Positions 5,714-63,309 of a stretch of DNA of 64,000 nt are shown here, piece after piece. Both the position numbers and the translations under genes were made by a program. How positions within the stretch are numbered: the stretch's first letter is position 1; each line of letters begins with the position of its first letter. Below the pieces are notes generated by a model, which saw only the letters and a list, made by a program, of their open reading frames with translations, was not told the DNA's origin and did no database searches. Source of the stretch: an uncultured bacterium (GTDB lineage Bacteria > Patescibacteriota > Minisyncoccia > Phycocordibacterales > UBA9973); the NCBI GenBank assembly GCA_937903035.1, contig CALCZP010000003.1, forward strand, positions 1,156 to 65,155. Direction: 5' to 3'.

Positions 5714-7456
5714 CTACGCACGCTCACCTACCTGCTGACGCCACATCGCAAAGTAAAGCCCCTTTTGCGCTAGCAACTCCTCATGTGTTCCTGACTCGCT
5801 CATTGTACCCTTCTCAAGTACATAGATACGATCAGCATGCATGATCGTTGAGAGTCGATGCGCAATGAGTATTGTGATGCGCTCATTTGTTGCAGAGACT
5901 TCTTTGATTGTTTTACTGATTTCTTCTTCGGTCAGACTATCAAGCGCACTTGTCGCTTCATCAAATACGAGAATATTTGGATTGCGAAGGAGTGCTCGGG
6001 CGATTGAGATACGCTGTTTTTCACCACCTGAAACTTTAACCCCACCTTCTCCGATGACAGTATCTAGCTCTTGACCACCACGCTCAAGCAAATTTTGACA
6101 TTGTGCTTTTTGAAGTGCATCGAGACATTCCTCATCAGTTGCAGCAGGGTTCACAAATAACAAATTTTCACGAATCGTTCCAGAAAATAGCTGCGTATCC
6201 TGAGTCACAAACCCTATTTGTTTGCGAAGCTCATCCTTGTTTATATCATCGTACGGAATGTTGTTGTACAAGATGGTACCTTCTGTTGGCTCATAGAGAC
6301 CAACCAACAATTTCACCAAAGACGTCTTGCCAGACCCTGATGGACCAACAAATGCAATCGTTTCTCCCTGCTTAACGTTATAACTAATAGTAGTAAGTGC
6401 TTGTGTTTGTGCAGATGTATATCCAAACGACACCTCCTTGAATGCAAGCTCTGTCACCTCTCCTACGTGCTTTGGATTAGTCGCACGAGGCTCAGGTTTG
6501 GTATCCATAAGCGTCTGATAGTTTGCAAGTGATGCTTCTGCCTGACGATACGTCGCAATATAGCCCGCGATTTGGGTAAGTGGGAAAAACAAGTAGAACG
6601 AATAGATATTGAGAGAGAAATACTGCCCAAGGGTAATCGTGCGCGTAAAGATCATATAGAACAGGAAGAGGTAGATTGCTGCTCGAATAAAGTTTGTGAC
6701 TGTACCCTGAATAAAGTCTAATGTCCGCACATATTTAAGCTTCTTGAGTTCGAGTTTCAATATCTTTTCAGTTGTGGTATTGAGTCTAGCAACTTCTTGA
6801 CCTGTGAGCCCGAGAGATTTCACGAGCTCAATATTACGAAGTGACTCGGTCGTTGATCCAGCGAGCGCGGTCGTCTCTGCAACAATCAACATCTGCACTG
6901 TTTTGATTTTTTTTGAAAAGACGAGCGTGATCGTGCCAATAATGATCACCATCGCTCCATAGATTACAGGGATTGCCCAGTACACGGTTGCCGCATACAC
7001 CATTACGAAGACAAGAATAATCCCCGAGAGAAAGAGCACATTAATCGTATCTTGAATCAGTTTTTCAGTGTCTTGTCGAGCTTTCTGGAGCTTACCGAGT
7101 GTTTCCCCACTTCGCTCGTCTTCAAACAATGCATACGGGAGACCAAGTGAATGCTCAACACCAGCACTGTACATATCTGCCCCACTTCGCTGACTGACGC
7201 GATTGAGATAGTAGTCTTGGAAATTTTTTGCAACACGAGAAACAAATGCAGTTCCTATGAATACCAACAAAAGGCCGATTGTTCCTTGCAGAAATGCTGA
7301 GCGTGTGAGCACGTCATATCTGAGCGCATAGGTATCAATGATGCGCTGATAGATGAGTGGCTCGACGAGTGAGAACACTTGGTTGATGATGGCAAGTACC
7401 ACCACAAGAGTGCACATCTTCCAATATTTACGGAGATATTGTTGGAGAATTTGCAT
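5714..7456 (-). CDS. ABC transporter, fused permease/ATP-binding protein (MsbA/exporter type)
   Basis: Six-TM N-terminal domain. Walker A GPSGSGKTS, ABC signature VSGGEKQRISIARA, Walker B ILVFDEATSALD. Confidence 0.85.
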   Translation of the reverse strand: MQILQQYLRKYWKMCTLVVVLAIINQVFSLVEPLIYQRIIDTYALRYDVLTRSAFLQGTIGLLLVFIGTAFVSRVAKNFQDYYLNRVSQRSGADMYSAGVEHSLGLPYALFEDERSGETLGKLQKARQDTEKLIQDTINVLFLSGIILVFVMVYAATVYWAIPVIYGAMVIIIGTITLVFSKKIKTVQMLIVAETTALAGSTTESLRNIELVKSLGLTGQEVARLNTTTEKILKLELKKLKYVRTLDFIQGTVTNFIRAAIYLFLFYMIFTRTITLGQYFSLNIYSFYLFFPLTQIAGYIATYRQAEASLANYQTLMDTKPEPRATNPKHVGEVTELAFKEVSFGYTSAQTQALTTISYNVKQGETIAFVGPSGSGKTSLVKLLVGLYEPTEGTILYNNIPYDDINKDELRKQIGFVTQDTQLFSGTIRENLLFVNPAATDEECLDALQKAQCQNLLERGGQELDTVIGEGGVKVSGGEKQRISIARALLRNPNILVFDEATSALDSLTEEEISKTIKEVSATNERITILIAHRLSTIMHADRIYVLEKGTMSESGTHEELLAQKGLYFAMWRQQVGERA

Positions 7457-7459
7457 AGA

Positions 7460-7954
7460 CTACTGTGCAGGCATGTCCATACCACCCCAAAGATTCGCGG
7501 TCCCAAGTGCGGTATTGCCAGATGACTTGATATAGAGGAAGAGCTGCATCTTGTACGCCGCGAGCCATTTGAGAAGATTTTCAACAAGGTATCGTCCTTT
7601 TGACATTTCCCCCATCCCATAGATATTGATCACCTTGGCAAGCTCTTCATCAGTAAAGAGCTCCATAGTCGCCTTGAAATCTGCGAGCTGCTTGTCCATC
7701 ATGTCAGCAAAGTTTGAAAGTGTGGTTGGCTCAGTTGGTTGAGGCAGTGTCTTGTACGCGTCAGTCGTCCCCGCAAGAATAACCTTAGTTGCATTTACAA
7801 AGACTTCTGAGAGGTACTGCAATAGCTCGCTTGTCGTCCGCTGCCCGTCAGTAGGCTTGTAGCCCTCGGTGTCAGCGGGGATTTTGGTCGCCAAGTGCTT
7901 GATAATACGGAATTCGTTGCTGACTGAGTCAATAAGGTCTTGTTTGGTGTACAT
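7460..7954 (-). CDS. Hypothetical protein (164 aa), possibly a DinB-like helical bundle
   Basis: ORF co-directional with the ABC exporter. Weak resemblance only. Confidence 0.35.
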   Translation of the reverse strand: MYTKQDLIDSVSNEFRIIKHLATKIPADTEGYKPTDGQRTTSELLQYLSEVFVNATKVILAGTTDAYKTLPQPTEPTTLSNFADMMDKQLADFKATMELFTDEELAKVINIYGMGEMSKGRYLVENLLKWLAAYKMQLFLYIKSSGNTALGTANLWGGMDMPAQ

Positions 7955-8046
7955 ATATATGATGATTGGCTGCTAGTGCCGCAAGTATAGCTGATATGCT
8001 ACGATGACACCAAACATATTCTTTTCACCTCAAAAACATAAAAACT

Positions 8047-9111
8047 ATGGCAAAAGCATTGGTTAAGTTTAGTATCAAAGATGACTTCTTTGACGAACTT
8101 CGTTTAGAAGTGAAAAATTATTTCACTTCTAATAAAATCGCAATAACCGGAGATTATCGTTTACATCTAAAAACAGCGATATTACTAACGCTTGCAATTG
8201 CAACGTATACTCATTTGGTATTCTACACGCCACCACTATGGCCAGCATTGATTGAATGTATTTTTCTCGGCACCTTATTTGTATCAATCGGATTCAATGT
8301 GATGCATGATGCATCACATGGAAGTTATTCCTCCAAACCCTGGGTGAATGAACTTATGGTACTTACTGCTGAGATGATGGGTGCTAGTTCTTTTTTGTGG
8401 ATTAAAAAGCATGATGGTATTCATCATATTCTTACTAACACTGAACATGACGACGATCTTCAAGCGGGTAAGGTTATGCGAATGCATCCTAGTCAAAAAC
8501 GATTATGGATCCATCGATATCAACATATATATGCATGGTTTGCGTATATGTTGTTGTATCTCAATTGGATTTGGATCAATGATTTCAACAAATATATCTT
8601 TCGTAAAATACATACGACTGAAATAAAAGAAGTTAAAAGATCAGACCATATCAAATTTTTGTCAGGCAAAGTATTCCATGGAGTATTTATGATTTGGATT
8701 CCGTGGCATCGTCTTGGTTTCACTTCATGGCTCATTGGATATCTTTCCTTTGCATTTGCTCTCGGACTTATCATGAGTGTTGTGTTCCAACTTGCTCACG
8801 TAGTAGAAAAAAGTACTTTCCCTACTTCAGAAAATGGAAGAATTATCTCTCCTACATGGGCAAGAATACAAATTCTGGAAACATGCGATTTTAGTACGAA
8901 GAATAAAGTTCTAACTTGGCTCCTTGGAGGATTAAACTTTCAAGTAATTCATCATTTATTCAGAGATATTAGCCATGTTCATTATCCTGCAATACAGCCT
9001 ATAGTGAAAAGAAAGTGTGAGAAGTATCAAATACCTTACACTGAACTACCTATTCTCTTTGCGATAAAATCACATTTCCGAGTAATTAAAACACTCGGAC
9101 AAGAAGCCTGA
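8047..9111 (+). CDS. Membrane fatty-acid desaturase (front-end/sphingolipid-type His-box desaturase)
   Basis: Three histidine boxes (HDASHG; HDGIHHILTNTEHDDD; QVIHHLF) and four TM segments. The gene is very AT-rich. Confidence 0.8.
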   Translation: MAKALVKFSIKDDFFDELRLEVKNYFTSNKIAITGDYRLHLKTAILLTLAIATYTHLVFYTPPLWPALIECIFLGTLFVSIGFNVMHDASHGSYSSKPWVNELMVLTAEMMGASSFLWIKKHDGIHHILTNTEHDDDLQAGKVMRMHPSQKRLWIHRYQHIYAWFAYMLLYLNWIWINDFNKYIFRKIHTTEIKEVKRSDHIKFLSGKVFHGVFMIWIPWHRLGFTSWLIGYLSFAFALGLIMSVVFQLAHVVEKSTFPTSENGRIISPTWARIQILETCDFSTKNKVLTWLLGGLNFQVIHHLFRDISHVHYPAIQPIVKRKCEKYQIPYTELPILFAIKSHFRVIKTLGQEA

Positions 9112-9128
9112 AAAGGCTTCTTTTTTTA
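9103..9128 (+). terminator. Rho-independent terminator of the desaturase gene
   Basis: Hairpin gaagcc-tgaaaa-ggcttc followed by T7. Confidence 0.6.
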
Positions 9129-9164
9129 TATAAAACTGTAAGTACATCAAAATAATTTAGAGAG

Positions 9165-9695
9165 TTATTCTTTATTCTCCGCCCACTCATTAGCCAGTCG
9201 TGCAGTCTCTTGAAGAAACGTAAATTTCCCTGGACGGTATGATAAATAATCATCAGGATGCTCGATCTTCAATTTTTCTTTCAAAGCACTATATTGCCCT
9301 GCCCGTTCTGAATGAGTTCGAAGATAATCTCTCACATTGATGAACTGTTTAATCCGTGGAGCACCTGTTTCAAATACATGAATATTCTCAATCTTTTCAG
9401 TACCCACTATTTTCTCAAATAACACTGAGCGCTCATCTAAAACATTTTCTCTTAAAATATATCCGGTAGAAATCATCTCTTCTTTTACTCTCTCAAGACT
9501 CGTAATATTCTCAACTATTACCAAGACATCAATAAGAGGTTTTGCTTTCATACCCACAACTGAAGTACTCCCTACATGCTCAATAGACAACGCCATTGTT
9601 CCAAAAACTTCTTCAAGTACTTTTTTAATAGTATTAAATTTTGTAACCCAGTCGGGATTATAAGGCTCGATGGAGTAAGTTCTTTCAGAATTCAT
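9165..9695 (-). CDS. GrpB-family protein (UPF0157, nucleotidyltransferase-like)
   Basis: Motif EHVGSTSVVGMKAKPLIDVLVIVENI. The track ORF extends to 9788 across tRNA-His, so the start was trimmed to the internal ATG (MNSERTYSIEPYNPDWV). Confidence 0.65.
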   Translation of the reverse strand: MNSERTYSIEPYNPDWVTKFNTIKKVLEEVFGTMALSIEHVGSTSVVGMKAKPLIDVLVIVENITSLERVKEEMISTGYILRENVLDERSVLFEKIVGTEKIENIHVFETGAPRIKQFINVRDYLRTHSERAGQYSALKEKLKIEHPDDYLSYRPGKFTFLQETARLANEWAENKE

Positions 9696-9731
9696 ATTTT
9701 TACTATAACGAATCTTTATTCGTCTTGCTTG

Positions 9732-9803
9732 GGTGCCCAGAGGGAATTGAACCCTCGATGTCGGAACCACAACCCGAAGTTTTACCACTAAACTATGGGC
9801 ACC
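9732..9803 (-). tRNA. tRNA-His (anticodon GTG) with G-1
   Basis: Hand-folded cloverleaf: G-1 pairs with C73, acceptor GTGCCCA/TGGGCAC, anticodon loop TTGTGGT, T-arm GAGGG-TTCAATT-CCCTC. Confidence 0.85.
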
Positions 9804-9879
9804 ATGTGTGGATGCTGTCCGTTCATCGAGAGCTGACAGCGTTCTCGTTATACCAGAAAAGACTGATGAAATCTAGACC

Positions 9880-10296
9880 TTAGAGAAAGAGTGCAATCGC
9901 AAGGAGGAGTGTGGCAAATGCCGATCCGAGACACCAATGACACCAGTGCTTGATAACAAATGCCTGAAGACCTACTAGGTAGAGCGTAAACAACACCCCT
10001 GCCCCGGTAATACCTCTGATGAGATTATGTACCAGTGGCGTATCCATACACGGAAGGATGAGTAGTCCAGCATAGAGAAGTCCTATCACGATATAGTACC
10101 CAAGTCCCATCAATTCATTCGGGATACCAAGGGTTGTCGCATGCGTGCTATGAACCACATATTCGCAACCATTTCGAGGGCAGACGAGCTTGGTATTGGA
10201 CTTCTTTTTGCGGTAGATATGGCTTGCTACCCCCAAACCAATCACTGAGGCCAATAGGCCGAGATATATGTTCATGACAGAAAGTATATCATGCAC
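9880..10296 (-). CDS. Vitamin K epoxide reductase (VKOR) family membrane protein
   Basis: Four TM helices. Loop Cys pair (CPRNGC) and TM CxxC (CHWC) are characteristic of bacterial VKOR homologues. Confidence 0.65.
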   Translation of the reverse strand: MHDILSVMNIYLGLLASVIGLGVASHIYRKKKSNTKLVCPRNGCEYVVHSTHATTLGIPNELMGLGYYIVIGLLYAGLLILPCMDTPLVHNLIRGITGAGVLFTLYLVGLQAFVIKHWCHWCLGSAFATLLLAIALFL

Positions 10297-14351: not shown

Positions 14352-14374
14352 AAAAAGTAAACGACCCCTAATTA

Positions 14375-14587
14375 CTAATTAAGAGGTCGTTTTGGGAGGC
14401 TTCCGCCAACATAGAGTTTATCATCATCAATTTCGTATGAAGCAATAAAACCTTCTGGCACTTCGTTGATATAAAGAGTTAGACCACCAAGTGTGTTTTC
14501 GTCGATAACGATTTCAGCAAGATTGCTTTTTTTTGCTTCTTCATACTTTTTTTCGACAAGATCTGTAAATGCTGGATTTGTATGCAT
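14375..14587 (-). CDS. Hypothetical small protein (70 aa)
   Basis: ORF lying between rluA and the kinase on the same strand. Confidence 0.35.
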   Translation of the reverse strand: MHTNPAFTDLVEKKYEEAKKSNLAEIVIDENTLGGLTLYINEVPEGFIASYEIDDDKLYVGGSLPKRPLN

Positions 14588-14617
14588 AAAATAATTTGTT
14601 TTATTATTATATATAAT

Positions 14618-15319
14618 CTATTTTTTGTCAATAGAATGTCTCAATCCGGTCGGACGAAGTGCACTTTTGAGGCTTCGCACCATCTGAAGATCATCCTTGA
14701 AGACACCAGAAACTTGATCATACTTTCCTGTTTTTTGATTATAGACAGTTGCAAGTTGCTCATAGGTAAAATCACTTCCTGTCCCTTCAGTTGCAGTACC
14801 AAAGTCAATAATAACAGGCATGCCTTGATTATTAATCATGACATTTCGAACATGTAAGTCCCGATGATAGATACCTGCATTATGCATTTTTAGGATCTGG
14901 TCATCTAAATCATTTGCAAATATTTGATATGAAAAATTTTCTGGTAACTGAGATGGATCTTGAATTGCTTGTTCTACCGTACAGCCATCAACACGTTCCA
15001 TAATAAGAAAACTTCCTTTATCTGTATCAATAGAAATCAATGCAAGTGGAGTACGAACACCTGCCTCGCGAGCTTTTCCTTGGAATTTATTTTCTTCGTC
15101 AATACTATTACAAATGAGCTGCTGCTTCTCCTTGATGCGCTTTAGACAAACCTTACTAAACTGACCGCCTTCTATCGCAAAAACTTCTGCATTTCCTCCT
15201 TCGCCAATTGATTCAGCATGTATTTCAAGAGAATTAATACATTCAAGCAATGCTTCAGTTTCTTTTGTCTCAACAATCTTTCTTACTTTTCGCATTTCGA
15301 AAGGTTGAATGTGTTCCAT
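14618..15319 (-). CDS. Small eukaryotic-like protein kinase (RIO/Bud32/Kdo-kinase-like, 233 aa)
   Basis: Gly-rich loop IGEGGNAEVF, VAIK-like lysine (KVCLKRIK), catalytic loop HRDLHVRNVMI, and DFG (IDFGTA). Confidence 0.6.
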   Translation of the reverse strand: MEHIQPFEMRKVRKIVETKETEALLECINSLEIHAESIGEGGNAEVFAIEGGQFSKVCLKRIKEKQQLICNSIDEENKFQGKAREAGVRTPLALISIDTDKGSFLIMERVDGCTVEQAIQDPSQLPENFSYQIFANDLDDQILKMHNAGIYHRDLHVRNVMINNQGMPVIIDFGTATEGTGSDFTYEQLATVYNQKTGKYDQVSGVFKDDLQMVRSLKSALRPTGLRHSIDKK

Positions 15320-15325
15320 ATGTTG

Positions 15326-19026: not shown

Positions 19027-19116
19027 GGAGGCGTGGCAGAGTGGTCGATTGCACCTGTCTTGAAAACAGGAGTCCTCGTAAGGGGACCGTGAGTTCGAAT
19101 CTCACCGCCTCCGCCA
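19027..19116 (+). tRNA. tRNA-Ser (anticodon TGA), CCA encoded
   Basis: Acceptor GGAGGCG/CGCCTCC, anticodon stem-loop CCTGT-CTTGAAA-ACAGG, long variable arm, T-loop TTCGAAT, 3' GCCA. Confidence 0.9.
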
Positions 19117-19148: not shown

Positions 19149-19190
19149 GGTAAACAAAAAGAGCGGATATCCGCTCTTTTTGTTTACCTA
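19149..19190. terminator. Perfect 42-nt palindrome; bidirectional intrinsic terminator between tRNA-Ser and the minus-strand operon
   Basis: aggtaaacaaaaagagcggatat|atatccgctctttttgtttacct is a perfect inverted repeat with U-runs on both strands. It overlaps the stop of the DHH gene. Confidence 0.6.
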
Positions 19191-20111
19191 TTCAAGCTCC
19201 TGTTTTAGAAGTGGGACTATTTGCTTCCGCATAATTAGATTCGGTCTTTCTGCGACAGTACCCTCAAATTTAACATCGAGGACTTTCTCCAATAGACTCT
19301 TTGTAGCTTCATCTTCGGCGACAAAGAAGTTCCTACTATCTTCAAGCTCTATGGTGTTCTGGAAAATATAATCTAAGCTCATTTCACTTTTTATTTTATT
19401 GAGAACTTTCACGATATCTTGATCTCGTTCAGTTACCAGTTTTCTTGCGCCAATGATTTCGATTTGAGCAATACCGACTTTTTTGTCTCCCATTACAAAC
19501 CATGCAAAATCTCCCTCGATTCTTTCAGCTAGTTTTGCTCCTGAAAGATCAGATTTTGCTTCAAATAGTTCTTTCCAGAAAATGTCTGGCAACTGGGCTG
19601 TTTCATTTAAATACTCAGCAACCTTTCTATCTCGATCGGTGGTTACTCCACCTTTAAAGTTCAAGGTGTTTGAGATAACTGCTCCATAGAGCAATACTGC
19701 CGATTCTTTTGAAATAGGAGTATTTGTCTCCATAAACTTCTCAGCGATAAGACTTGCAGCAGCCCCGACAAGTTCTATTTGAACTTTTGCATTGGGAAAT
19801 TTATCAGCCTCGTGTATTTTTCTGTGATCAATGATCTCAATTACTTTCTCGGGTGCGATCTTACCCTCGATACCATTCAGATCGCTTGCATCAACGAGTA
19901 TCACTTCATCAAAGTCGTCTGCGTTTGGTATTGATTGAGGATATGCAAAATTATAACGATCGAGGATGTATTTAACTTCATCGTGAGGTTCTCCAATAAT
20001 TCCGACAACAGCATTCTTGCCGATCTTTTGTAAATATTCTGCATAGGCAATAGCACCAGCAACGCCGTCTAAGTCAGGATTTACATAGCAAGTGACAAGG
20101 ATAGGTTTCAT
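19188..20111 (-). CDS. DHH-family phosphoesterase, most like family II (Mn-dependent) inorganic pyrophosphatase
   Basis: N-terminus KPILVTCYVNPDLDGVAGAIAYAEYL matches the DHH motif region of PpaC/NrnA-type enzymes. 307 aa with a DHHA2-like C-terminus. Confidence 0.55.
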   Translation of the reverse strand: MKPILVTCYVNPDLDGVAGAIAYAEYLQKIGKNAVVGIIGEPHDEVKYILDRYNFAYPQSIPNADDFDEVILVDASDLNGIEGKIAPEKVIEIIDHRKIHEADKFPNAKVQIELVGAAASLIAEKFMETNTPISKESAVLLYGAVISNTLNFKGGVTTDRDRKVAEYLNETAQLPDIFWKELFEAKSDLSGAKLAERIEGDFAWFVMGDKKVGIAQIEIIGARKLVTERDQDIVKVLNKIKSEMSLDYIFQNTIELEDSRNFFVAEDEATKSLLEKVLDVKFEGTVAERPNLIMRKQIVPLLKQELE

Positions 20112-20115
20112 AAAC

Positions 20116-20805
20116 TTATTTGGTGGGTCGCTTAATTATTAAATCAATTTCAGGACTTTCAGATTTTAAATTAGCTATGACTTTCTCTACAACAGTTCCA
20201 ACTTCCATATAATCCTTAAGATCATCAGGATACTTTTCTTTATAAATATCTGTTTGCATACCACCAGGGAATATTCCGTAAACTTTGATATCCGTATCTT
20301 GAATTTCCTTGCGGATAGATTCAGTTAAACCTTTGATCGCAAACTTAGACGAAGCGTAGGCAGATATGCCTTGCTTACCATCAAGTCCAGCTGTTGAGTT
20401 TATATTTATAATTGCGCCGTTTCCTTGGCTTTTCATTTGGGTAAGAGCTACCTGGCATCCATAGAAATAACCAAAGAAATTTATATCAAACAAGTGATGT
20501 AATTTCTGAATATCAACTTCTTCTACCAAACTAGGAGCAATCTGAATTCCTGCATTATTTATCCAACAATCGATCTTTCCGTATTTCTTTACCGCGTAGT
20601 CAGATAAATTCTTAATATCCTCAAAAGAGGTTACGTCAGCAAGAAAATGATCAACAGCCAATTCTTGTGCTGTTGCTTCTAAATGTTCTATTTCATGACT
20701 GGAGATAATAACCCGAGCGTTTTCATTTTTAAATGCCTCAGCAAGTGCCTTGCCAAAACCCTGACTTCCGCCTGTTACTATAATTACCTTATCTTGAATC
20801 TTCAT
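20116..20805 (-). CDS. SDR-family short-chain dehydrogenase/reductase
   Basis: Rossmann motif IIVTGGSQGFGKALA and catalytic YxxxK (YASSKFAIK). Confidence 0.8.
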   Translation of the reverse strand: MKIQDKVIIVTGGSQGFGKALAEAFKNENARVIISSHEIEHLEATAQELAVDHFLADVTSFEDIKNLSDYAVKKYGKIDCWINNAGIQIAPSLVEEVDIQKLHHLFDINFFGYFYGCQVALTQMKSQGNGAIININSTAGLDGKQGISAYASSKFAIKGLTESIRKEIQDTDIKVYGIFPGGMQTDIYKEKYPDDLKDYMEVGTVVEKVIANLKSESPEIDLIIKRPTK

Positions 20806-20829: not shown

Positions 20830-22149
20830 TTATTTCTCTAGACTGATCTTCTTCTGGCTCAACAATATCTTGCTCTTCAAACAACCGAGCATTTCTCGTT
20901 TTTCAAGATTCGATCCCTCTTTCAAAACGTACTTTGCATATCCTCGAATATCGATACTTGGAATATCAATCTTTTCCTTTGTTCCAAGGAGGAATTTTTG
21001 CAGTTTGGAGAATCGTTCAACATCAGCTTTTATTCTTTCCTTAACTTCGATCTCATTCAGATTGATTTTGTTGATCAGTTCCTCAAATTGTTTTAAGATT
21101 TCTTTCTCTTCGGTATAGCCACATTTGCAATCAGCACCTCGGGCTTTGGTGCATCCGTAATAGACATATCTTTGAACCGTTCCATTTTTATACTTCTTGA
21201 ATTTCTCATCGGCAGATATACCAGATCCGCAAAGTCCGCAGACCATCATCTTTGTGAAAGCGAATTCTTTGCCCTCGACTCGCAACACCTGACTTTTTAT
21301 TTGTTCTTGTACGAGGGTAAACAATTCTTTGGTGATAATCGGCTCGTGTTTTCCTGTATACCAGTTACCCGAACTGCGAGGATATTCAAATACGCCATAG
21401 TAGAAAGTGTTATCTAAAATTCTGTAGATATTCCCAAGGCTCAAATGTTTCTTTCCGTAAGCGCTTCTGAAGTTGAGATTGAATCTGAGCCAGTTGTATA
21501 TCTTTCTTCCGCTCCAATGCTCGTAGGCGACTTTCTCAAATATCTTCTTGATAGTCGGCGCCCGTTCTGGATCGATAAGCGTTTCGCATTTCCGATCTGT
21601 GCGTTTTTCTTTCATGTATCCAGTCGGAGCAGGACCAGGCCATAATCCCATCTCGACTCTGGTTCTCAAACCTCGCTTCACATTGATACTCTTATTGTCA
21701 TTTTCGAGCTTAGCTTGTGAACACAAAATCATCAAAAGGAATTTCTCGTTCGGTGAGTTTTTGAATTGCTGTCCATAGGTACGAATCTCCATAAGCAACT
21801 GTTGATCCATAAGATCGACGATTGAACCAAGGTCACCTGCGTTACGAGAAAGTCGATCAGGTGCCCAAGTTAGAATCCCATTAAACCGTCCTCGTCGTAC
21901 ATCCTCCAAGATTTCCTTATAGACAGGTCGTTGTCCTGATTCTTTTGCACTATGAGATTCTCTTCGTATCTCTACAACTTCCAAACCATCTCGTTCGGCA
22001 AGTTCAAGCATTTCCTTAATCTGAGAATCAATTGAAAGCACTTGTCGTTCTTCTGATTCGGTAGATTTTCGAGCATATAGTACATATTTTATTTTTTGTA
22101 CTGGTGCTATGACCTCCTTACCAATCCTGGCTGTGGTGTATGTTTCCAT
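20830..22149 (-). CDS. Large serine recombinase (resolvase/integrase family with recombinase and zinc-ribbon domains)
   Basis: N-terminal catalytic domain (YVLYARKSTESEERQVLSIDSQ...), central recombinase domain, Cys-rich zinc ribbon (CGLCGSG...CTKARGADCKCGY), coiled-coil tail. Confidence 0.8.
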   Translation of the reverse strand: METYTTARIGKEVIAPVQKIKYVLYARKSTESEERQVLSIDSQIKEMLELAERDGLEVVEIRRESHSAKESGQRPVYKEILEDVRRGRFNGILTWAPDRLSRNAGDLGSIVDLMDQQLLMEIRTYGQQFKNSPNEKFLLMILCSQAKLENDNKSINVKRGLRTRVEMGLWPGPAPTGYMKEKRTDRKCETLIDPERAPTIKKIFEKVAYEHWSGRKIYNWLRFNLNFRSAYGKKHLSLGNIYRILDNTFYYGVFEYPRSSGNWYTGKHEPIITKELFTLVQEQIKSQVLRVEGKEFAFTKMMVCGLCGSGISADEKFKKYKNGTVQRYVYYGCTKARGADCKCGYTEEKEILKQFEELINKINLNEIEVKERIKADVERFSKLQKFLLGTKEKIDIPSIDIRGYAKYVLKEGSNLEKREMLGCLKSKILLSQKKISLEK

Positions 22150-29982: not shown

Positions 29983-30414
29983 ATGAAGAAGTCAACACCA
30001 ATTGATCCCGAATCAGTACTTATCGAACATGGATTCAAGCGAACCCCGCTCAGACTTGCACTTCTAGAGCTTTTCTCTCAATCAACCAAACCCTTCACTG
30101 CTACTGACCTCATCAAAAAAACAAAAAAAGTTGGCACTGATACTGCAACACTGTATCGAGCACTCACCGCATTTCTCGAGGCTGGTATTATCCAAAGTCT
30201 TGCACTCCAGAAAGACAAGGTTTCATACCAACTCAAATCATCACATACACACCACATCGTATGTAACAAATGCGGTACGATCGAGACGGTACCCTTTTGC
30301 ATTAGAGATATTACAAAAAAAGCTGTACTTACCTCCAAACTTTTCAAAGTGATCAACGAGCATCGACTCGAGTTTTTTGGAACTTGCAGAAAATGTATCC
30401 GCGCGGTACGGTGA
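29983..30414 (+). CDS. Fur-family metalloregulator (Zur-like)
   Basis: Winged-helix N-terminus, metal site SSHTHHIVCNKCG...CxxC. Start trimmed to MKKSTPIDPE. Confidence 0.8.
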   Translation: MKKSTPIDPESVLIEHGFKRTPLRLALLELFSQSTKPFTATDLIKKTKKVGTDTATLYRALTAFLEAGIIQSLALQKDKVSYQLKSSHTHHIVCNKCGTIETVPFCIRDITKKAVLTSKLFKVINEHRLEFFGTCRKCIRAVR

Positions 30415-30418
30415 TACT

Positions 30419-30796
30419 ATGTCTATGAAAAAGAAACAAATCATTACGTTCGCTGTTATCATACTCGTTGTTGCGGGACTCATTTCATTACTCGTTGTAC
30501 AAGCAAAAAAGCCCGGCAAGTATGATACCTTTGCGCAGTGCATCTCAGACAGTGGTGCAAAGTTTTATGGCGCATGGTGGTGTCCTCACTGTCAGGCAAC
30601 AAAGGCAATGTTTGGCAAGTCTGCAAAACTCCTTCCGTATGTTGAATGCTCAACCCCTGATTCAAAACCAATCCAGCAATGTACCGACCTCGGTATCAAA
30701 GGATATCCAACATGGAAGTTCGCTGATGGCAGTGAACTAAGCGGTGAACGCACTATGACCGAACTCGCCGAGAAAACGAATTGTGCCATCCAATAA
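30419..30796 (+). CDS. Membrane-anchored thioredoxin-fold oxidoreductase (DsbA/VKOR-associated Trx-like, WCPHC active site)
   Basis: N-terminal TM anchor then FYGAWWCPHCQATKAMF. Start 4 nt after the zur stop. Confidence 0.7.
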   Translation: MSMKKKQIITFAVIILVVAGLISLLVVQAKKPGKYDTFAQCISDSGAKFYGAWWCPHCQATKAMFGKSAKLLPYVECSTPDSKPIQQCTDLGIKGYPTWKFADGSELSGERTMTELAEKTNCAIQ

Positions 30797-30797
30797 T

Positions 30798-31337
30798 ATG
30801 TCAGTCGAACTCTTCAACACACTTGCTGCCGTCAGTGTTATCGCGATCCAGATCGGTATCGTCGCACTGATTCTCGGCATGATTACCAAAGCTCCATTTG
30901 TACAGTGGATTGCTTGCTATGCACATATCATCCTTGGCGCACTTTTCATTGGTGGCTCGGTTGCAAGTTTTATCTACCAATACGGCTTCAGCTATGAGCC
31001 ATGTCTCCTCTGTTGGTACCAGCGCATTGCCATCATTCCGATTGCAATCCTCACTCTCACTGGCGACATCCGCAAGAGCTCACTCATGCGTAAACAGGTT
31101 CTCACGCTTGCGATCATCGGCTTTCTTGTCGCACTTTTTCACAACTATATCGACATCTTCCCGAGCGGCCTTGATGTGTGTGGTGCAGAAGGTGTGAGCT
31201 GTCTAAAGCGCTATGTGTATGAATTCGGCTATATCACCATTCCCATGATGTCGGCAACAATACTCCTTGCAGGCATACTCCTCTCCTTGATCACCAAGCG
31301 TTATCCACAGAACGACATTGTTACAACCACTAAGTAG
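30798..31337 (+). CDS. Disulfide bond formation protein B (DsbB/BdbC family)
   Basis: Four TM helices. First Cys pair CLLCWYQR in the TM1-TM2 loop, second pair CGAEGVSC. Start 1 nt after the Trx stop. Confidence 0.7.
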   Translation: MSVELFNTLAAVSVIAIQIGIVALILGMITKAPFVQWIACYAHIILGALFIGGSVASFIYQYGFSYEPCLLCWYQRIAIIPIAILTLTGDIRKSSLMRKQVLTLAIIGFLVALFHNYIDIFPSGLDVCGAEGVSCLKRYVYEFGYITIPMMSATILLAGILLSLITKRYPQNDIVTTTK

Positions 31338-31519: not shown

Positions 31520-32137
31520 TTAGGAAAGCAGTACTTTTTCAAGTGCGAGTTCAAGTGGTACTCCCCCTTTCCATGCATCAGCATGCGCAGTGATGAGTCG
31601 CTCATACAATGCCTTGTATACACCCGTAGTATCTTTCAACATCATGTCACGAACTTTCCAGTAGATAATACCAAGCATCGCTTCGGCTGAGTGATGTTCT
31701 GCAATCGCATAATATTTCAACCATCGGCTTTTTTTATCAGAGGTAGTGATCATATTCGATACATCATTGAACATCGTCTCTTTTTTTGTAACTGATTCTT
31801 TTCCTCCAGTGTGTACTACCGCTCCAGTTTTTTTGAACAATGCCACCAGTGGTGATGAAAGAGTAATTTCTTCAAAAATAAATATTGTCGGACTTGCAAG
31901 AAGTTTTTTTACAAACGGAAGACCAACATCATCAGCATGAGAACTTACTACAAATCGTGTATGTATTACTGGTAGTGTCGGACTAAAAAGTGATGGGTAG
32001 AGATACTGTTCAAGTTCACTAAATGTCACATCGGTGTCATGGAGCACAATGACCTCATCGCTTCCCGATTGCTTGATTGCTTCTGCAATATAAGAAGATC
32101 GAACTGTTTTATTATCAGCAACTACAAGAATAATCAT
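31520..32137 (-). CDS. Hypothetical protein, possibly a minimal DNA polymerase III delta (HolA)-like protein
   Basis: 205 aa with weak pattern similarity to the HolA N-terminal region (…VIVLHDTDVTFSELEQYLY…RFVV). Uncertain. Confidence 0.3.
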   Translation of the reverse strand: MIILVVADNKTVRSSYIAEAIKQSGSDEVIVLHDTDVTFSELEQYLYPSLFSPTLPVIHTRFVVSSHADDVGLPFVKKLLASPTIFIFEEITLSSPLVALFKKTGAVVHTGGKESVTKKETMFNDVSNMITTSDKKSRWLKYYAIAEHHSAEAMLGIIYWKVRDMMLKDTTGVYKALYERLITAHADAWKGGVPLELALEKVLLS

Positions 32138-32598
32138 TAGAGTATTTTTTGTACGGATGATCGATATGTTTTGTATTCTCCATCTGCAGTAGTCGCAAGG
32201 ATCGACTCATACTTTTTGAAAAAAATATTTGAGACAAGGTACCCGATCAAGGTCGAAAGAAAAAGCATGAGCGAACCTGAGACCAGTGTGTAGCCCGCTA
32301 CAAGAATGAGGAGCCCAAGATGGGTTGGATTGCGCATATACCGATACGGACCAAAATGAAAGTATTTCTTTCCATACCCATGCGTTTGCTCGACATAACG
32401 AGATGTGTACTGTGCCCAGAAAATAAGTATTGGCCCAATAATGAAAAAAGTTATCGCAATATATAGTGCATAGGGAACATTCATTTCAAACCCAAGAAAA
32501 TAATCAGCAAACAATCCAAGCATACTACATACAAAGTGTACGAGATATGACTTCGCCAGCACAATATGGATAGATTCGTGTCGTTTCATAGCTTTCAT
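32137..32598 (-). CDS. Isoprenylcysteine carboxyl methyltransferase (ICMT/PEMT) family membrane methyltransferase
   Basis: Family motif GPYRYMRNPTHLG in a 4-5 TM protein. Confidence 0.65.
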   Translation of the reverse strand: MKAMKRHESIHIVLAKSYLVHFVCSMLGLFADYFLGFEMNVPYALYIAITFFIIGPILIFWAQYTSRYVEQTHGYGKKYFHFGPYRYMRNPTHLGLLILVAGYTLVSGSLMLFLSTLIGYLVSNIFFKKYESILATTADGEYKTYRSSVQKIL

Positions 32599-43180: not shown

Positions 43181-43564
43181 TTACTTTTTTTCTTCAAAAT
43201 CTAGACTCGCAGAATTAATACAGTATCGCTTCCCTGTTGTTTCTCTCGGACCATCATTAAATACATGCCCAAGATGTGCACCACAATTGGCACAGACTGC
43301 CTCGATACGACTCATACCATGCGTCGTATCCTCAATATACTTGATTGCATCGGCTTTGACTGGCTGGTCATAGGATGGCCATCCGGTACCTGAGTCGAAC
43401 TTGGTCTTTGCATCAAAAAGCGCTGCGCCACAGACCTTACACCGATACATACCATCAGCATGGTTATCCCAATACTTGTTGCGAAATGGTGCTTCAGTAC
43501 CCTTCTCTTGGGTTACGTAGCGTTCTTCATCACTGAGTGTTTTTAGCTTTTCTTCCTTGTTCAT
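43181..43564 (-). CDS. msrB: Peptide methionine sulfoxide reductase MsrB
   Basis: SelR motifs: zinc-binding CxxC pairs ([18 protein letters not shown]) and catalytic RYCINS. Confidence 0.9.
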
Positions 43565-55570: not shown

Positions 55571-57271
55571 TTATATTCTTCGAATGTATAAAGAATATTT
55601 CTTCTGAATACGAGTATTTGCCCATTTAACAATAGGGTTTTCTCCTACAGAAGGGTTTGGGGATGAACGGACATCCATAAGGGTTCCATCTCCTATATAG
55701 ATGAGTACATGCCCCCCTGATGTATAAGGTTTAGCACCACCCGCTTGCCATCCTATTAAATCGCCAACCTTAACCTCAATACCATTTATAAGATATTTAC
55801 CGTTTTTATTTTCGACAGTTATTATTTTTTCTGTTCCATTAAAAATATCACCAGTAAATGCTTCTGTTTTTGGTGTTATTCCCGCACATGAAAGTACTGT
55901 ATTTACATATGAACTACAATCAAGATTGATTACGGTAGATGAATATGCGGTTCCTCGTGCATCTTGTGAATAAGATACTCTACCCTTAAAACTCTGTGCA
56001 ATAGTAGGTATTGTACCAGCGCCAATATTTTTTGCGGGACAAATAATTCCTGCTGGGAATTTAATACTTTTAAAATCATATCCAGTTCCACCTTTTCCTG
56101 ACCCCACTGATCCTGATTTTGGTGGTATATCCCCTCCTTCTTCAAAATCTACCCCCACCGCCACCTTATTCAAGCTAATACTATTCTCTACAAGCTTCGG
56201 ATTGATGGTATTTAATATCAGATAGGCAGACAATGCCAACGCAAGCCCTCCTAATGCCTCAAAGAAGCCACTCTTGGCACTTGCCTTCAAAAACGGTATA
56301 TCAGTCACAATATACTGATATCCCTCATAGACGAGACGAAGCACCAACAATACTGCCGCCAAACTCACCAACAGTTTGAACATATAGTTCAGAAAGTCAT
56401 TAATGTCACAGATCTCCCCTCCCTTTCCCTTCTGAGATCGTTGTTCTTCACACAGGTCAGGATCCAAAAGTACTGAGAGTCCTGGAAATGGTGCAAGGAG
56501 ACGGTATGAGCGGGAGTCGAAGTCGGATTGAACAGAAGCTGCGTCTGTTGCAACTTTTCCTTTGTCAGAAGTGAGTATGCCAACATCAGTAACCATCTGC
56601 TTCCCTGTTGGAGAAGTGAGAAGTATTTTATAGTAGTACTTCACTTCGGTACCAAGGTCATTCAATGACCAATAGAGAGATCCGTCTGCGGCAACACCTT
56701 CAGTACTTCCTGAGATATCTGTTTTTGATTTAAAGAGCTTAGTACTACCCGAAGCATTCATTACTCCATCAGGAAGTGGTACGGTATCTAGATATAATGT
56801 CGCGGTGAATTTCTTGAAATCAGGGTGAATTGTTGTATTAATTTTACTACTAACAATTAGTGGAGTGCCTTTGGTTATTGTTGCAGGATCTGCTGCAAGG
56901 AATGTTTCTTGTGGAGTAACGATATAAAAGTCTTTCCCTTGGGCGTCACGTGCGGCAAGTCCAACAAAATAGCGTTTATCGGTCGGTATAGTGGTAACTA
57001 CTTGTGAGGCAGTTGCACCAGGCTTCAAATTGTTAATAGCGACAGTACTACTGCCTGAAACTTTAGTGTCCTGATTTAGTATTGTTGTCGTTGAAGGCGT
57101 AAAAACAAGATAGAATAACTTGTTTTTGTCAGTTGTCGGTAGGGTATATGTTACTAAAAGGCCACCTTGTTGTAATTGAGATGTAAGTGTATATCCATTA
57201 CCAGCGTGCACTAGATTGATCGGAATAACTACAAGGAGAAAGCCAAGAAGTGCAATAAAGCCCTTTTTCAT
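55571..57271 (-). CDS. T4SS-associated cell-wall hydrolase-like protein: signal peptide, extracellular domain, shared 2-TM module, C-terminal NlpC/P60-CHAP-like domain
   Basis: The C-terminus has a Cys...His pattern (DCSSYVNTVLSCAGI … GGHVLIYIGDG) like CHAP/NlpC-P60. The central 124 aa are identical to the paralogue. Confidence 0.55.
   Translation of the reverse strand: MKKGFIALLGFLLVVIPINLVHAGNGYTLTSQLQQGGLLVTYTLPTTDKNKLFYLVFTPSTTTILNQDTKVSGSSTVAINNLKPGATASQVVTTIPTDKRYFVGLAARDAQGKDFYIVTPQETFLAADPATITKGTPLIVSSKINTTIHPDFKKFTATLYLDTVPLPDGVMNASGSTKLFKSKTDISGSTEGVAADGSLYWSLNDLGTEVKYYYKILLTSPTGKQMVTDVGILTSDKGKVATDAASVQSDFDSRSYRLLAPFPGLSVLLDPDLCEEQRSQKGKGGEICDINDFLNYMFKLLVSLAAVLLVLRLVYEGYQYIVTDIPFLKASAKSGFFEALGGLALALSAYLILNTINPKLVENSISLNKVAVGVDFEEGGDIPPKSGSVGSGKGGTGYDFKSIKFPAGIICPAKNIGAGTIPTIAQSFKGRVSYSQDARGTAYSSTVINLDCSSYVNTVLSCAGITPKTEAFTGDIFNGTEKIITVENKNGKYLINGIEVKVGDLIGWQAGGAKPYTSGGHVLIYIGDGTLMDVRSSPNPSVGENPIVKWANTRIQKKYSLYIRRI
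56152..56525. repeat. Copy 1 of a perfect ~373-bp direct repeat
   Basis: Identical nucleotide run to 58080-58453 by direct comparison of the sequence lines. It encodes DFDSRSYRLLAPFPGLSVLL…KLVENSISLNKVAVG. Confidence 0.85.
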
Positions 57272-57291
57272 TCTTCAAGTGTACCACGGTA

Positions 57292-58854: not shown

Positions 58855-58855
58855 A

Positions 58856-59806
58856 CTAGTTGAACAAAATAGTAAACAGTCGCTCAATATGCTGCAAGCT
58901 ATATGCTACTGTGCTGATTGCGAGATTGACTCTACTCTCCCCTCCTTCATCAGGACGTGAAAGACGAAGTTCGTTTACACGTGGATCTCCTGCGATTGCA
59001 GTATCTCCAGCGCTCATTTCTATATTGAGACTATCCATAATTGATCCAAGAAATGAAAAGAAAAAAGGTTCAAAGTGGAGGATAAGCCCTGCCTGGTTTG
59101 TTGTAATAGATTGAGTACTCCCAATCGCATAGTTGATAAATCCGTCATTATTTTGATACGCAACCAATGATGGAGAGACCGGGGTTATGGTTACTGCATT
59201 TGTGCCGACAAATGAGCCTGATTCAAGGGTTAGTTCAACTGTATCACTCGTCGCTAGTGCACCATTTTGAAATACAAAGCTTGATTTGTTATACCCTGAG
59301 CTATCTTGCTGTATTTCGTCGTTGTGAGACCATTTAAAAACATTATTTTTAGGAGCAGTTGCTGCAGGAATACCTACTACTCGGATAAGGGCTCCATCTG
59401 CAGGAAGTGCTTTTCCTTTATAAAAAGGTGGTGTGTATGAGTCAGCTGCCTCCCACAAGAGATCAACACTTGCAGGTCTCAGTGTTATTGAGGCAGTTGC
59501 GGGGATAATTGTTCCTGAGGTTGTTGCGATAATAATACCTGTCTGACCTGCCTTTGGTGCAGTTACAACAATTTCGGTTTTGCCCGTACCCGAAGTAATC
59601 AAGGCACCATTGTATTTCCACGTAATAACTGTCTGATTTAAATCAAGGCTAAAACTCTGAGCCTTCAAAAAGACTTGCTGGCCAGGGGCAGGATTTCCTG
59701 GAGTAGCAGTAATTGCCATGTCTGCTGACTGCGCAACGACTGTTCGTGGTATGAGTACATATACAGATAGTACGATAGCTGCCACAATGGCTCGATACAT
59801 GTCCAA
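58856..59806 (-). CDS. Secreted hypothetical protein (316 aa) in the T4SS-like cluster
   Basis: Signal peptide MDMYRAIVAAIVLSVYVLIPRTVVAQS. Confidence 0.45.
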   Translation of the reverse strand: MDMYRAIVAAIVLSVYVLIPRTVVAQSADMAITATPGNPAPGQQVFLKAQSFSLDLNQTVITWKYNGALITSGTGKTEIVVTAPKAGQTGIIIATTSGTIIPATASITLRPASVDLLWEAADSYTPPFYKGKALPADGALIRVVGIPAATAPKNNVFKWSHNDEIQQDSSGYNKSSFVFQNGALATSDTVELTLESGSFVGTNAVTITPVSPSLVAYQNNDGFINYAIGSTQSITTNQAGLILHFEPFFFSFLGSIMDSLNIEMSAGDTAIAGDPRVNELRLSRPDEGGESRVNLAISTVAYSLQHIERLFTILFN

Positions 59807-59822
59807 AGTATAGCACTTTTAC

Positions 59823-61637: not shown

Positions 61638-61685
61638 TGGTAGCTATAGTATAGCAGTATATTACTGCAAGTGGATGGAGTATGA

Positions 61686-62327: not shown

Positions 62328-62336
62328 ACTGTAGAT

Positions 62337-62753: not shown

Positions 62754-62785
62754 ACAAAAAGCGCCTCAGTGGGAGGCGCTTTTTG

Positions 62786-63307: not shown

Positions 63308-63309
63308 GG

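Follow-up and report, generated by a model that had tools for sequence, protein, structure and literature searches.

The usual picture of bacteria of the CPR, or Patescibacteria, is that of lipid auxotrophs that often live anaerobically and take their membrane lipids from hosts. Fatty-acid synthesis is reported to be lacking in Patescibacteria, and host lipids are thought to be recycled (PMC12455944, PMC9938205). Bacteroidota are reported to donate genes to them often by horizontal transfer (PMC12455944). The Des protein of Bacillus subtilis is a Delta5 acyl-lipid desaturase that acts on the chains of existing membrane lipids and uses O2 together with ferredoxin or flavodoxin (PMC9825965). Li et al. 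found that Delta5 phospholipid desaturases cluster near the methyl-end family and recorded many uncharacterised desaturase-like proteins in prokaryotes (PMC5037126). A third histidine box of the form QxxHH is the motif given for front-end desaturases (PMC12405942). Our search for literature pairing a desaturase with Patescibacteria or Parcubacteria found nothing on the topic.

Here we describe a desaturase locus of a Candidatus Paceibacterota (CPR) bacterium; the whole stretch of DNA that was analysed, 64 kb in length, is referred to as the window. Judged from its conservation in related genomes, the desaturase did not arrive in a recent island and is a rare, predicted lipid-editing gene in a lipid scavenger. 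We think it likely that the desaturase is a long-resident, O2-dependent editor of acyl chains and that the neighbouring GrpB gene is a later, single-gene gain beside tRNA-His.

Organization of the locus

The membrane di-iron fatty-acid desaturase (354 aa, PF00487) is encoded on the plus strand at 8047–9111 and is followed by an intrinsic terminator at 9101–9130, found on the same strand by a terminator scan. Three-way alignment delimits a lineage-specific segment of about 600 bp (9131–9730) that carries, on the minus strand, the gene of a 176-aa GrpB/UPF0157 family protein (9165–9695, PF04229). Beyond it, all on the minus strand, are tRNA-His(GTG) at 9731–9802 (ARAGORN; Rfam RF00005, 63.4 bits), a conserved element upstream of the tRNA that is its likely promoter (9834–9861, from an alignment of six loci), and a VKOR-family membrane thiol oxidoreductase (9880–10296; PF07884, E 8.4e-20). 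Pfam, ARAGORN and Rfam place the desaturase, GrpB, tRNA-His and VKOR where an earlier, sequence-only reading of this DNA had put them.

A family-less protein of 164 aa is encoded on the minus strand at 7460–7954, divergent from the desaturase, and Pfam and NCBIfam searches with it gave no match. Together with an ABC transporter (5714–7456) it forms a two-gene module, the position of which differs between relatives. Among the related loci, which carry L numbers, the 164-aa protein has orthologues in L006 (85% identity) and in L103/L104 (53%), and its gene is missing from the L007/L105 loci. VKOR, DsbB, a thioredoxin-like protein and MsrB are all encoded in the window, a predicted set that agrees with life in the presence of oxygen.

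Conservation and origin of the desaturase

Syntenic orthologues of the desaturase were found in six further lineages, set as in the window in the neighbourhood formed by pheST-rhodanese and tRNA-His-VKOR. The closer ones have 73–83% identity (79% in L006, 73% in the L007/L088-L091 group), and the deeper ones have 46–51% (46–48% in L103, L104 and L105). From gene content and similarity we infer that L103-L105 are CPR as well. In L006 and in the L007/L088-L091 group the desaturase adjoins tRNA-His and GrpB is absent. In L103, L104 and L105 it adjoins the rhodanese gene or lies one to three genes from tRNA-His-VKOR. The linkage of tRNA-His and VKOR is itself kept in L006, L007, L100-L102 and L104; in L105 it is kept too, but a single gene separates the two. 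The identity matrix of the desaturase splits the window, L006 and L007 from L103 and L105, and those of PheT, PheS and rhodanese do likewise. Its dN/dS is about 0.09, with neighbours at 0.03–0.11, and by this estimate the desaturase is under purifying selection.

Because it is conserved at its place or in its neighbourhood in L006, L007, L088-L091 and L103-L105, we put the desaturase outside any recent island. It would have been resident between the pheST-rhodanese and tRNA-His-VKOR blocks before lineages with about 43% PheT identity split. The sequence-only reading had placed the AT-rich gene at an integration hotspot, and a recent acquisition there is contradicted by its being kept in place or in its neighbourhood, with locus-like GC, across relatives.

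Two observations hint at exchange within the group. The dS between the L006 and L007 desaturases is 0.41, compared with 1.2–1.9 for PheT, rhodanese and AI-2E, and L103 and L104 have an ABC transporter that is 96% identical but desaturases that are only 57% identical. Recent exchange was weighed as a reading of the first of these signs, but L19 and PheS have similarly low dS, and for this reason the low desaturase value is kept here as a mere remark. At about 25 other Paceibacteria loci of similar PheT distance, no desaturase lies within 10 kb of pheST. This patchy distribution may reflect loss or transfer within the CPR. L021 and L029, from Paceibacteria at a greater distance, were considered as empty-site comparators, but their pheST-rhodanese synteny runs into a helicase and not into tRNA-His/VKOR, and they are therefore uninformative on the tRNA-His site.

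A further question is where the gene came from in the first place. An ancestor of the Paceibacteria may have acquired it in an ancient inter-phylum transfer from a Bacteroidota-like donor, maybe its host and possibly at tRNA-His, with inheritance ever since; we rate the chance of this at slightly less than even. Such a transfer is compatible with the long residence that we favour and differs from it on the ultimate origin only. All named close homologues outside the CPR are from Bacteroidota (Ferruginibacter, Chitinophagaceae, Bacteroidia and Pontibacter, 44–49% identity), and one Bacteroidota homologue adjoins SusC/SusD. Only about 13 clusters are of the CPR type, whereas thousands score E <= 1e-60, the desaturase is adjacent to or near tRNA-His in several lineages, and Bacteroidota are the reported frequent donors mentioned above (PMC12455944). 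However, in an outgroup-rooted NJ tree, the root of which is on a long branch, the Bacteroidota-type clade (84% bootstrap) excludes the CPR-type sequences. These form two basal groups and are not nested in the Bacteroidota clade, so the tree fixes neither donor nor direction. The donor lineage that the sequence-only reading had envisaged can thus be given as far as the nearest relatives outside the CPR, which are Bacteroidota at about 45% identity; Bacteroidota as a recent donor were rejected, since the CPR-type sequences fall outside their clade. A viral vector was also considered and rejected, IMG/VR having only four relatives of the desaturase, the best at 39% identity.

Sequence type and predicted fold of the desaturase

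The desaturase ORF matches PF00487 (FA_desaturase) with an E-value of 6.7e-34 and 118.2 bits (cut-off 29.7), and residues 64–334 span profile positions 2–252 of 253. The three histidine boxes noticed before were confirmed as HDASH (87–91), HDGIHH (122–127) and QVIHH (299–303). In an alignment of 67 homologues, H87/D88/H91, H122/H126/H127 and Q299/H302/H303 are invariant, as are H156, H201, H251, H310, H312 and H343, and at least 90% of the sequences also have H160; none of the invariant His and Gln residues has been lost in the protein of the window. The terminator has a 9-bp stem and a T-run, with the stop codon in its loop, and its sequence is also conserved in L006 and L007. The predicted gene is intact.

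By its third box, which has the QxxHH motif (PMC12405942), the protein is of a front-end or Delta6-like sequence type. The Pfam scan gave no Cyt-b5 domain and the HPGG motif occurs nowhere in the window, and we therefore use the label front-end-like sequence type and do not assign the protein to the eukaryotic fusion family. The sequence-only reading had set an acyl-lipid, Des-type enzyme against a sphingolipid Delta4 one; the Pfam scan reported no Lipid_DES N-terminal domain (sphingolipid Delta4, DEGS type). No narrower name came from sequence searches of NCBIfam and the PDB, the latter returning no match.

The AF2 model (pLDDT 94.3, pTM 0.91) has long helices at residues 37–60, 64–90, 154–185 and 198–251 and agrees with the helical membrane fold expected for the His-box di-iron superfamily. 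In a Foldseek search against the PDB, two chains from the Orf2971/Ycf2-FtsHi motor complexes, 8xks_K and 8xqw_M, ranked first (TM 0.65); we regard them as desaturase-like subunits. The alkane monooxygenase AlkB came next. Could the protein then be some other His-box di-iron enzyme, for instance a hydroxylase or ketolase, or a modifier of sphingoid bases or other lipids? Apart from the alkane monooxygenases among the nearest solved folds, it is in favour of this that His boxes predict neither regiospecificity nor chemistry, that none of the close homologues identified is experimentally characterised and that prokaryotes have many uncharacterised desaturase-like proteins (Li et al., PMC5037126). 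We nevertheless regard it as unlikely, as FA_desaturase is the best and sole Pfam family and is matched over the whole domain, the third box carries the front-end motif, the Lipid_DES domain was not reported, and the homologues are annotated in their sources as acyl-CoA or linoleoyl-CoA desaturases, which is annotation only.

GrpB and the 3' flank of tRNA-His

The GrpB ORF matches PF04229 (E 2.5e-38, 132.2 bits, cut-off 25.5), with residues 8–164 spanning profile positions 3–156 of 159, and it also matches PDB entry 2NRK, 'hypothetical protein GrpB' (E 5e-20). A longer, GTG-started ORF reaches 9788 and overlaps tRNA-His. Public assemblies call the 176-aa, ATG-started form, which starts 35 nt past the 3' end of tRNA-His and is co-oriented with it. 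The nearest homologues have 45–61% identity, the named ones being from Patescibacteria. In L098, GrpB begins 5 nt after tRNA-Glu, and its neighbours change at every related locus examined. A role as a defence-system gene was considered and rejected, GrpB having no PADLOC match. The segment at 9131–9730 stands where relatives have a 120–165 bp spacer from terminator to tRNA-His, and homology to L006/L007 stops right after the desaturase terminator. As aligned, GrpB is a lineage-specific insertion directly 3' of tRNA-His, and it would have been gained later as a single gene in this slot.

The tRNA-His is identical in nine loci except for two variable positions (Y and R in the search pattern), and conservation among six loci ends exactly at its 3' end. 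The slot beyond this end contains GrpB in the window, a Zn-ribbon gene in L105, a methyltransferase in L100 and, in L101, a 548-aa large serine recombinase that overlaps the 3' end of the tRNA; in L006/L007 the slot is empty. From these comparisons the 3' flank of tRNA-His is a recombination hotspot of the wider lineage, as the sequence-only reading had held for this site, with conservation stopping at the tRNA end and variable content in the slot. The hotspot probably serves elements of large serine recombinases. At tRNA-Ser the window carries a 6.7-kb island that includes a large serine recombinase, and the only serine recombinase of the window is encoded at 20830–22149. A kinase-like gene is the first gene downstream of tRNA-Val in the same genomes.

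Att sites and an integrase were looked for at the GrpB insertion, and none were found. The best repeat of the tRNA-His 3' end is of 9 nt (p ~0.07) at 8042–8051, with nothing above chance in 9100–9720, and a search of 7955–8046 for the partial tRNA-His repeat suggested there gave none. In L007, a 10-nt AAATGGGTGC repeat lies 105 nt from tRNA-His (p ~0.02), which is weak, and L006 has a degenerate tandem unit too weak to interpret. Upstream of the tRNA, an extended -10-like TGGTATAAC is located at 9847–9855 on the minus strand, and all six of the aligned loci keep the core GTTATACCAGAA, L100 with a single mismatch. The element at 9834–9861 is likely the promoter of tRNA-His. GrpB would be placed for read-through from it and could be transcribed in this way.

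According to the sequence-only reading, the desaturase and GrpB stand out as an AT-rich pair, and the two genes could on this basis form one recent island aimed at the 3' end of tRNA-His. The AT-richness was borne out in total GC and is weaker in GC3. The GC content of 8047–9695 is 35.4%, while the window has 42.1 +/- 3.1% and the flanks of the pair 45.2%/42.5%. This is the lowest in the window and is matched only by dnaA/dnaN, core genes that are as AT-rich as the pair; 1.4% of equal-sized windows have GC as low, all in the dnaN-dnaA region. The pair also abuts the 3' end of tRNA-His, and in one relative this tRNA is flanked by a serine recombinase gene. However, the GC3 of the pair is no outlier: it is 0.29 for the desaturase and 0.288 for GrpB, against a window mean of 0.386 (SD 0.085, z = -1.1), and 10 of 65 ORFs are at or below this level. 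In relatives, the desaturase orthologues are within 1–5 GC points of their own loci (40.2% vs 41.2% in L103, 40.6% vs 41.7% in L104), and in L006/L007 their GC3 is 0.43–0.46. In L006, L007 and L088-L091 the desaturase occupies this site without GrpB, L103-L105 have it in the same neighbourhood, and its dN/dS and divergence are like those of core genes. The pair has no tRNA-derived direct repeat, and no integrase or recombinase gene lies within 7460–9802. The GrpB segment alone explains the difference between the window and its relatives. A common recent island is therefore very improbable. What survives of the island is GrpB, a lineage-specific insertion absent at tRNA-His from L006, L007 and L088-L091; the desaturase, present in those same relatives, conserved, congruent with its neighbours and under purifying selection, drops out of it.

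An assembly or binning error that fused a piece of Bacteroidota DNA to a CPR contig can be dismissed, even with the closest named desaturase homologues in Bacteroidota, since the identical gene with identical CPR flanks is found in eight contigs (ENA and Logan; several independent samples and assemblers; one of 405 kb), orthologues elsewhere share the synteny, and identity to Bacteroidota is only about 45%.

Proposed function and significance

Returning to the long-resident acyl-chain editor, the lineage is reported to be one without fatty-acid synthesis that recycles the lipids of other bacteria, and therefore the enzyme would desaturate acquired acyl chains; it probably acts on scavenged chains using O2. 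As an O2-dependent membrane di-iron desaturase it would put double bonds into these chains, and the cell could in this way tune its membrane fluidity. Electrons would come from a soluble donor encoded elsewhere; motifs of ferredoxin, flavodoxin, rubredoxin and cytochrome b5 were searched for in the 64 kb window and none was found. Substrate, regiospecificity, electron donor and physiological role are what we infer for the desaturase, as is the delivery agent for GrpB. A broader proposal, that a long-kept, O2-dependent desaturase edits scavenged acyl chains while tRNA 3' slots take up single accessory genes delivered by large serine recombinases and expressed by read-through from the tRNA promoter, is put forward tentatively, and we hold it to be doubtful as a whole.

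The surprise at finding a lipid desaturase in such an organism was justified, with about 13 CPR-type clusters found among 5.8 billion proteins. If our reading is true, some Paceibacteria are active remodellers of the lipids that they scavenge and live in the presence of oxygen, and the desaturase provides a concrete enzyme for testing lipid remodelling in the CPR. By the comparison of loci, gene gain in this lineage is at tRNA 3' flanks and not at the desaturase. A caution that should be useful for other CPR genomes is that local AT-richness beside a tRNA is poor ground for calling islands.

Comparison with known systems

In tRNA islands of serine recombinases, variable cargo likewise starts exactly at the 3' end of the tRNA, and a homologous recombinase is present at the tRNA-His flank in L101. 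Unlike such islands, the tRNA-His site of the window has no recombinase and no att repeat, and only GrpB is lineage-specific. GrpB has a full-length PF04229 match in common with the GrpB/UPF0157 family and resembles 2NRK in sequence. In 6N39 the GrpB-family part is the C-terminal domain of a mycobacterial dephospho-CoA kinase, whereas GrpB of the window stands alone and lacks a CoaE domain.

For the desaturase, the likeness to Des of B. subtilis is a functional analogy only; Des belongs to another sequence cluster, and the surroundings of the gene in the window showed no regulator of the DesK/DesR type. With front-end desaturases it shares HxxxH, HxxxHH and QxxHH, including the Gln that opens the third box, although the eukaryotic front-end enzymes have a fused cytochrome b5 and the protein of the window does not. 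It lies outside the sampled Bacteroidota clade, and its host is a member of the CPR, reported to be without fatty-acid synthesis; with the uncharacterised Bacteroidota 'acyl-CoA / linoleoyl-CoA desaturases', however, it shares the full PF00487 domain, a length of about 355 aa and the invariant residues, at 44–49% identity.

Gene organization and base composition

All four features on which the sequence-only reading rested were confirmed where it had placed them: the desaturase (8047-9111, plus strand, 354 aa; PF00487 FA_desaturase, E 6.7e-34), the GrpB-family protein (9165-9695, minus strand, 176 aa; PF04229 GrpB, E 2.5e-38), tRNA-His(GTG) (9731-9802, minus strand) and the VKOR homologue (9880-10296, minus strand). 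The desaturase gene has a terminator at 9101-9130, a hairpin and T-run with the stop codon within the loop. In the mechanical ORF list GrpB reaches a GTG at 9788, inside tRNA-His; public assemblies call the 176-aa product from the ATG at 9695, and with this start GrpB begins 35 nt beyond the 3' end of tRNA-His, with which it is co-oriented.

The desaturase and GrpB genes had been described as AT-rich, which holds for total GC and only weakly for GC3. The GC content of 8047-9695 is 35.4% (42.1% for the whole window) and that of its flanks 45.2% and 42.5%, so the local contrast is real. GC this low occurs in only 1.4% of same-sized windows, all of them over dnaN-dnaA. The AT signal at synonymous sites is weak: GC3 is 0.29 for the desaturase and 0.288 for GrpB (z = -1.1) against a mean of 0.386 (SD 0.085) over 65 ORFs, 10 of which are equal or lower. 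The low GC is partly due to codon positions 1 and 2 of a membrane protein rich in Ile, Phe, Lys and Asn.

Conservation of the desaturase locus

The desaturase had also been read, together with GrpB, as a tRNA-linked island. In two close relatives, L006 and L007, a desaturase (79% and 73% identical, respectively) occupies the same site and stops 122-165 nt short of the tRNA-His 3' end; VKOR follows on the other side of the tRNA, and GrpB is absent. The L007 arrangement is repeated in four other relatives (L088-L091) and two further NCBI assemblies. Orthologues of 46-48% identity were found in the same neighbourhood on metagenomic contigs of three deeper relatives. In L103 the desaturase stands between PheT-PheS-rhodanese and a Zn-ribbon gene, an ABC transporter and p164 (a 164-aa protein of unknown family); in L104 a 164-aa gene precedes desaturase-formyltransferase, followed by ABC-p164-tRNA-His-VKOR; and in L105 (GCA_013565555.1) it lies between PheT-PheS-rhodanese-GATase-166-aa gene and Zn-ribbon gene-tRNA-His-CobAT-VKOR.

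Composition in the relatives is typical, with desaturase GC close to that of the locus in L103 (40.2 vs 41.2%) and L104 (40.6 vs 41.7%) and ordinary GC3 in L006 and L007 (0.43-0.46). Desaturase identity separates the window, L006 and L007 from L103 and L105, and the same split is seen in PheT, PheS and rhodanese (between-group identities of 46-50% for the desaturase, 42-45% for PheT, 74-79% for PheS and 70-72% for rhodanese). The desaturase dN/dS is 0.09 for the window against L006 or L007, and that of neighbouring genes 0.03-0.11. No integrase is encoded between 7460 and 9802, and the search for a partial tRNA-His repeat, which had been proposed for 7955-8046, was negative there and within 9100-9720. 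Conserved position with typical composition in the relatives, the finding that the sequence-only reading had itself named as refuting, together with core-like divergence and the lack of integrase or tRNA repeat, refutes a recent island for the desaturase. A smaller version of the proposal, limited to GrpB and the tRNA flank, is upheld.

The distribution of the desaturase among Paceibacteria is patchy, L103 and L104 share an ABC transporter of 96% identity and desaturases of only 57%, and several flanking genes exceed the desaturase in dS between L006 and L007, so the group has probably seen some exchange. The same mismatch suggests that the ABC exporter/p164 module (window 5714-7954; L103 9752-11993; L104 4730-6971) moves or is exchanged. 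The module lies left of the desaturase in the window and L006, right of it in L103 and L104, and is absent from L007 and L105.

The tRNA-His 3' flank

In a three-way alignment of the window, L006 and L007, homology extends through the desaturase terminator and resumes exactly at tRNA-His; about 600 bp with GrpB (9131-9730) stand where the relatives have a short spacer. Used as a query against metagenomes, the tRNA-His sequence returned three further loci with the same tRNA beside VKOR homologues of 31-45% identity. The six aligned loci share the tRNA and a conserved element upstream of it, and their similarity ends at the tRNA 3' end. Situated about 45 nt ahead of tRNA-His, this element (9834-9861, minus strand) includes an extended -10-like TGGTATAAC on the same strand as the tRNA. 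Its core is kept in six of six loci, even where VKOR identity is down to 31-45%; the element is likely the tRNA promoter.

The content of the slot itself varies by locus. GrpB fills it in the window, L006 and L007 have it empty, L105 has a CHC2 Zn-ribbon gene there, and L100 a class I methyltransferase that begins 16 nt past the tRNA. In L101 it is taken by a large serine recombinase of 548 aa (Resolvase, Recombinase and Zn_ribbon_recom), which overlaps the 3' end of the tRNA at its C-terminus. The view of this flank as a hotspot is thereby borne out. The closest GrpB homologues are 45-61% identical, the named ones being from Patescibacteria, and the genes around them were different at each locus examined; in one (L098) GrpB starts 5 nt after tRNA-Glu. 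Given these homologues, neighbours and the slot variability, GrpB is a CPR-internal accessory gene gained in the window lineage at a tRNA-flank hotspot, by a mode of arrival that we infer.

The terminator-to-tRNA-His spacers of L006 (11085-11230) and L007 (6391-6512) hold two and one units, respectively, starting ATGGGTGCAC, which echo the tRNA-His 3' end (AAATGGGTGC; 10 nt, p ~0.02). Earlier integration or excision may have left them as scars, but the signal is too weak to call. In L102 a 1.1-kb contig ends in a perfect long palindrome (1050-1140) that takes in the tRNA-His 3' end and is probably an assembly artefact.

Other variable sites

The genuine tRNA-linked island of the window is a 6.7-kb insertion relative to L006 (19132-25845, GC 38.6%) directly 3' of tRNA-Ser(tga) (19027-19116). 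It encodes a DHH/DHHA2 phosphoesterase (19188-20111), an SDR (20116-20805) and an SBP_bac_3 protein. Its large serine recombinase (20830-22149) shares 36% identity with the one at tRNA-His of L101, and an ABC ATPase and a methyltransferase resemble PADLOC 'mad3' (E 6e-35) and 'mad2', respectively; no att repeat was found. A second variable slot, of one gene, adjoins the 3' end of tRNA-Val(tac): the co-oriented genes immediately after this tRNA are non-homologous across three close relatives (window 14352-15324; L006 14909-15793; L091 8339-9037). The window gene (14618-15319, minus strand) is protein-kinase-like and of low GC (37%), with PADLOC PD-T4-6 similarity (E 8e-19). A TraG/VirB4-like P-loop ATPase (59823-61637) and an NlpC/P60-Amidase_5 hydrolase (55571-57271), along with several proteins that are small or secreted and of unknown family, give the region 55571-63954 the look of a conjugation or type-IV-secretion-like cluster.

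Host and origin of the desaturase

Eight contigs of up to 405 kb, drawn from several samples, carry the identical desaturase with identical flanks. A PheT scan over one genome per GTDB species gave one close relative, "Candidatus Paceibacterota bacterium UR_AS_metabat.84" (GCA_035905735.1; 82% identity), and the next matches (<=47%) were only Paceibacteria, Nomurabacteria and other Patescibacteria MAGs. The host is a CPR bacterium.

Outside its own small group, the named close homologues of the desaturase are all Bacteroidota "acyl-CoA desaturases" (44-49% identity), one of which adjoins SusC/SusD. A CPR-type profile search gave about 13 clusters at 533-636 bits and all others at <=482 bits. 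With giant-virus desaturases as the root of an NJ tree, bootstrap support was 100% for the window group, 79.5% for the group including the L103, L104 and L105 proteins and 84% for the Bacteroidota-type clade. The CPR-type groups branch basal to that clade instead of within it, which excludes a recent Bacteroidota donor. An ancient inter-phylum transfer is plausible, since the desaturase is rare in Patescibacteria and gene flow from Bacteroidota to Patescibacteria has been reported (PMC12455944).

Possible function and enzyme type

Reports on Patescibacteria describe a lack of fatty-acid synthesis and the recycling of lipids taken from other bacteria (PMC12455944, PMC9938205). The desaturase, intact, under selection and with its own terminator, would most plausibly introduce double bonds into acquired acyl chains, a step that would use O2 and a soluble two-electron donor, as in the general desaturase mechanism (PMC9825965). 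A search of the 64-kb window for ferredoxin, flavodoxin, rubredoxin and cytochrome b5 motifs found none. The window also encodes, besides VKOR (9880-10296), DsbB with an adjacent thioredoxin-like partner (30377-31337), MsrB (43181-43564) and a PEMT/ICMT-like membrane methyltransferase (32137-32598). VKOR and DsbB are both quinone-type disulfide-bond oxidoreductases; a genome of this type is expected to lack quinone synthesis. Together with the thioredoxin-like protein and MsrB, they are consistent with oxygen exposure, and the whole set, including the methyltransferase, is a toolkit for an oxidising environment.

Pfam detects no cytochrome b5 or Lipid_DES domain in the desaturase, NCBIfam gives no finer name, and a PDB sequence search found no match. 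Its AlphaFold model is confident (pLDDT 94.3), and the top solved-structure matches are two chains of Orf2971/Ycf2-FtsHi motor complexes, which we take to be desaturase-like subunits, and then AlkB. The His boxes HDASH (87-91), HDGIHH (122-127) and QVIHH (299-303) are present and invariant in 67 homologues, and further His residues conserved among these are retained. The Gln opening box 3 is a motif described for front-end desaturases (PMC12405942; classification framework in PMC5037126). The protein is a rare representative of a known kind of enzyme in an unexpected host group.
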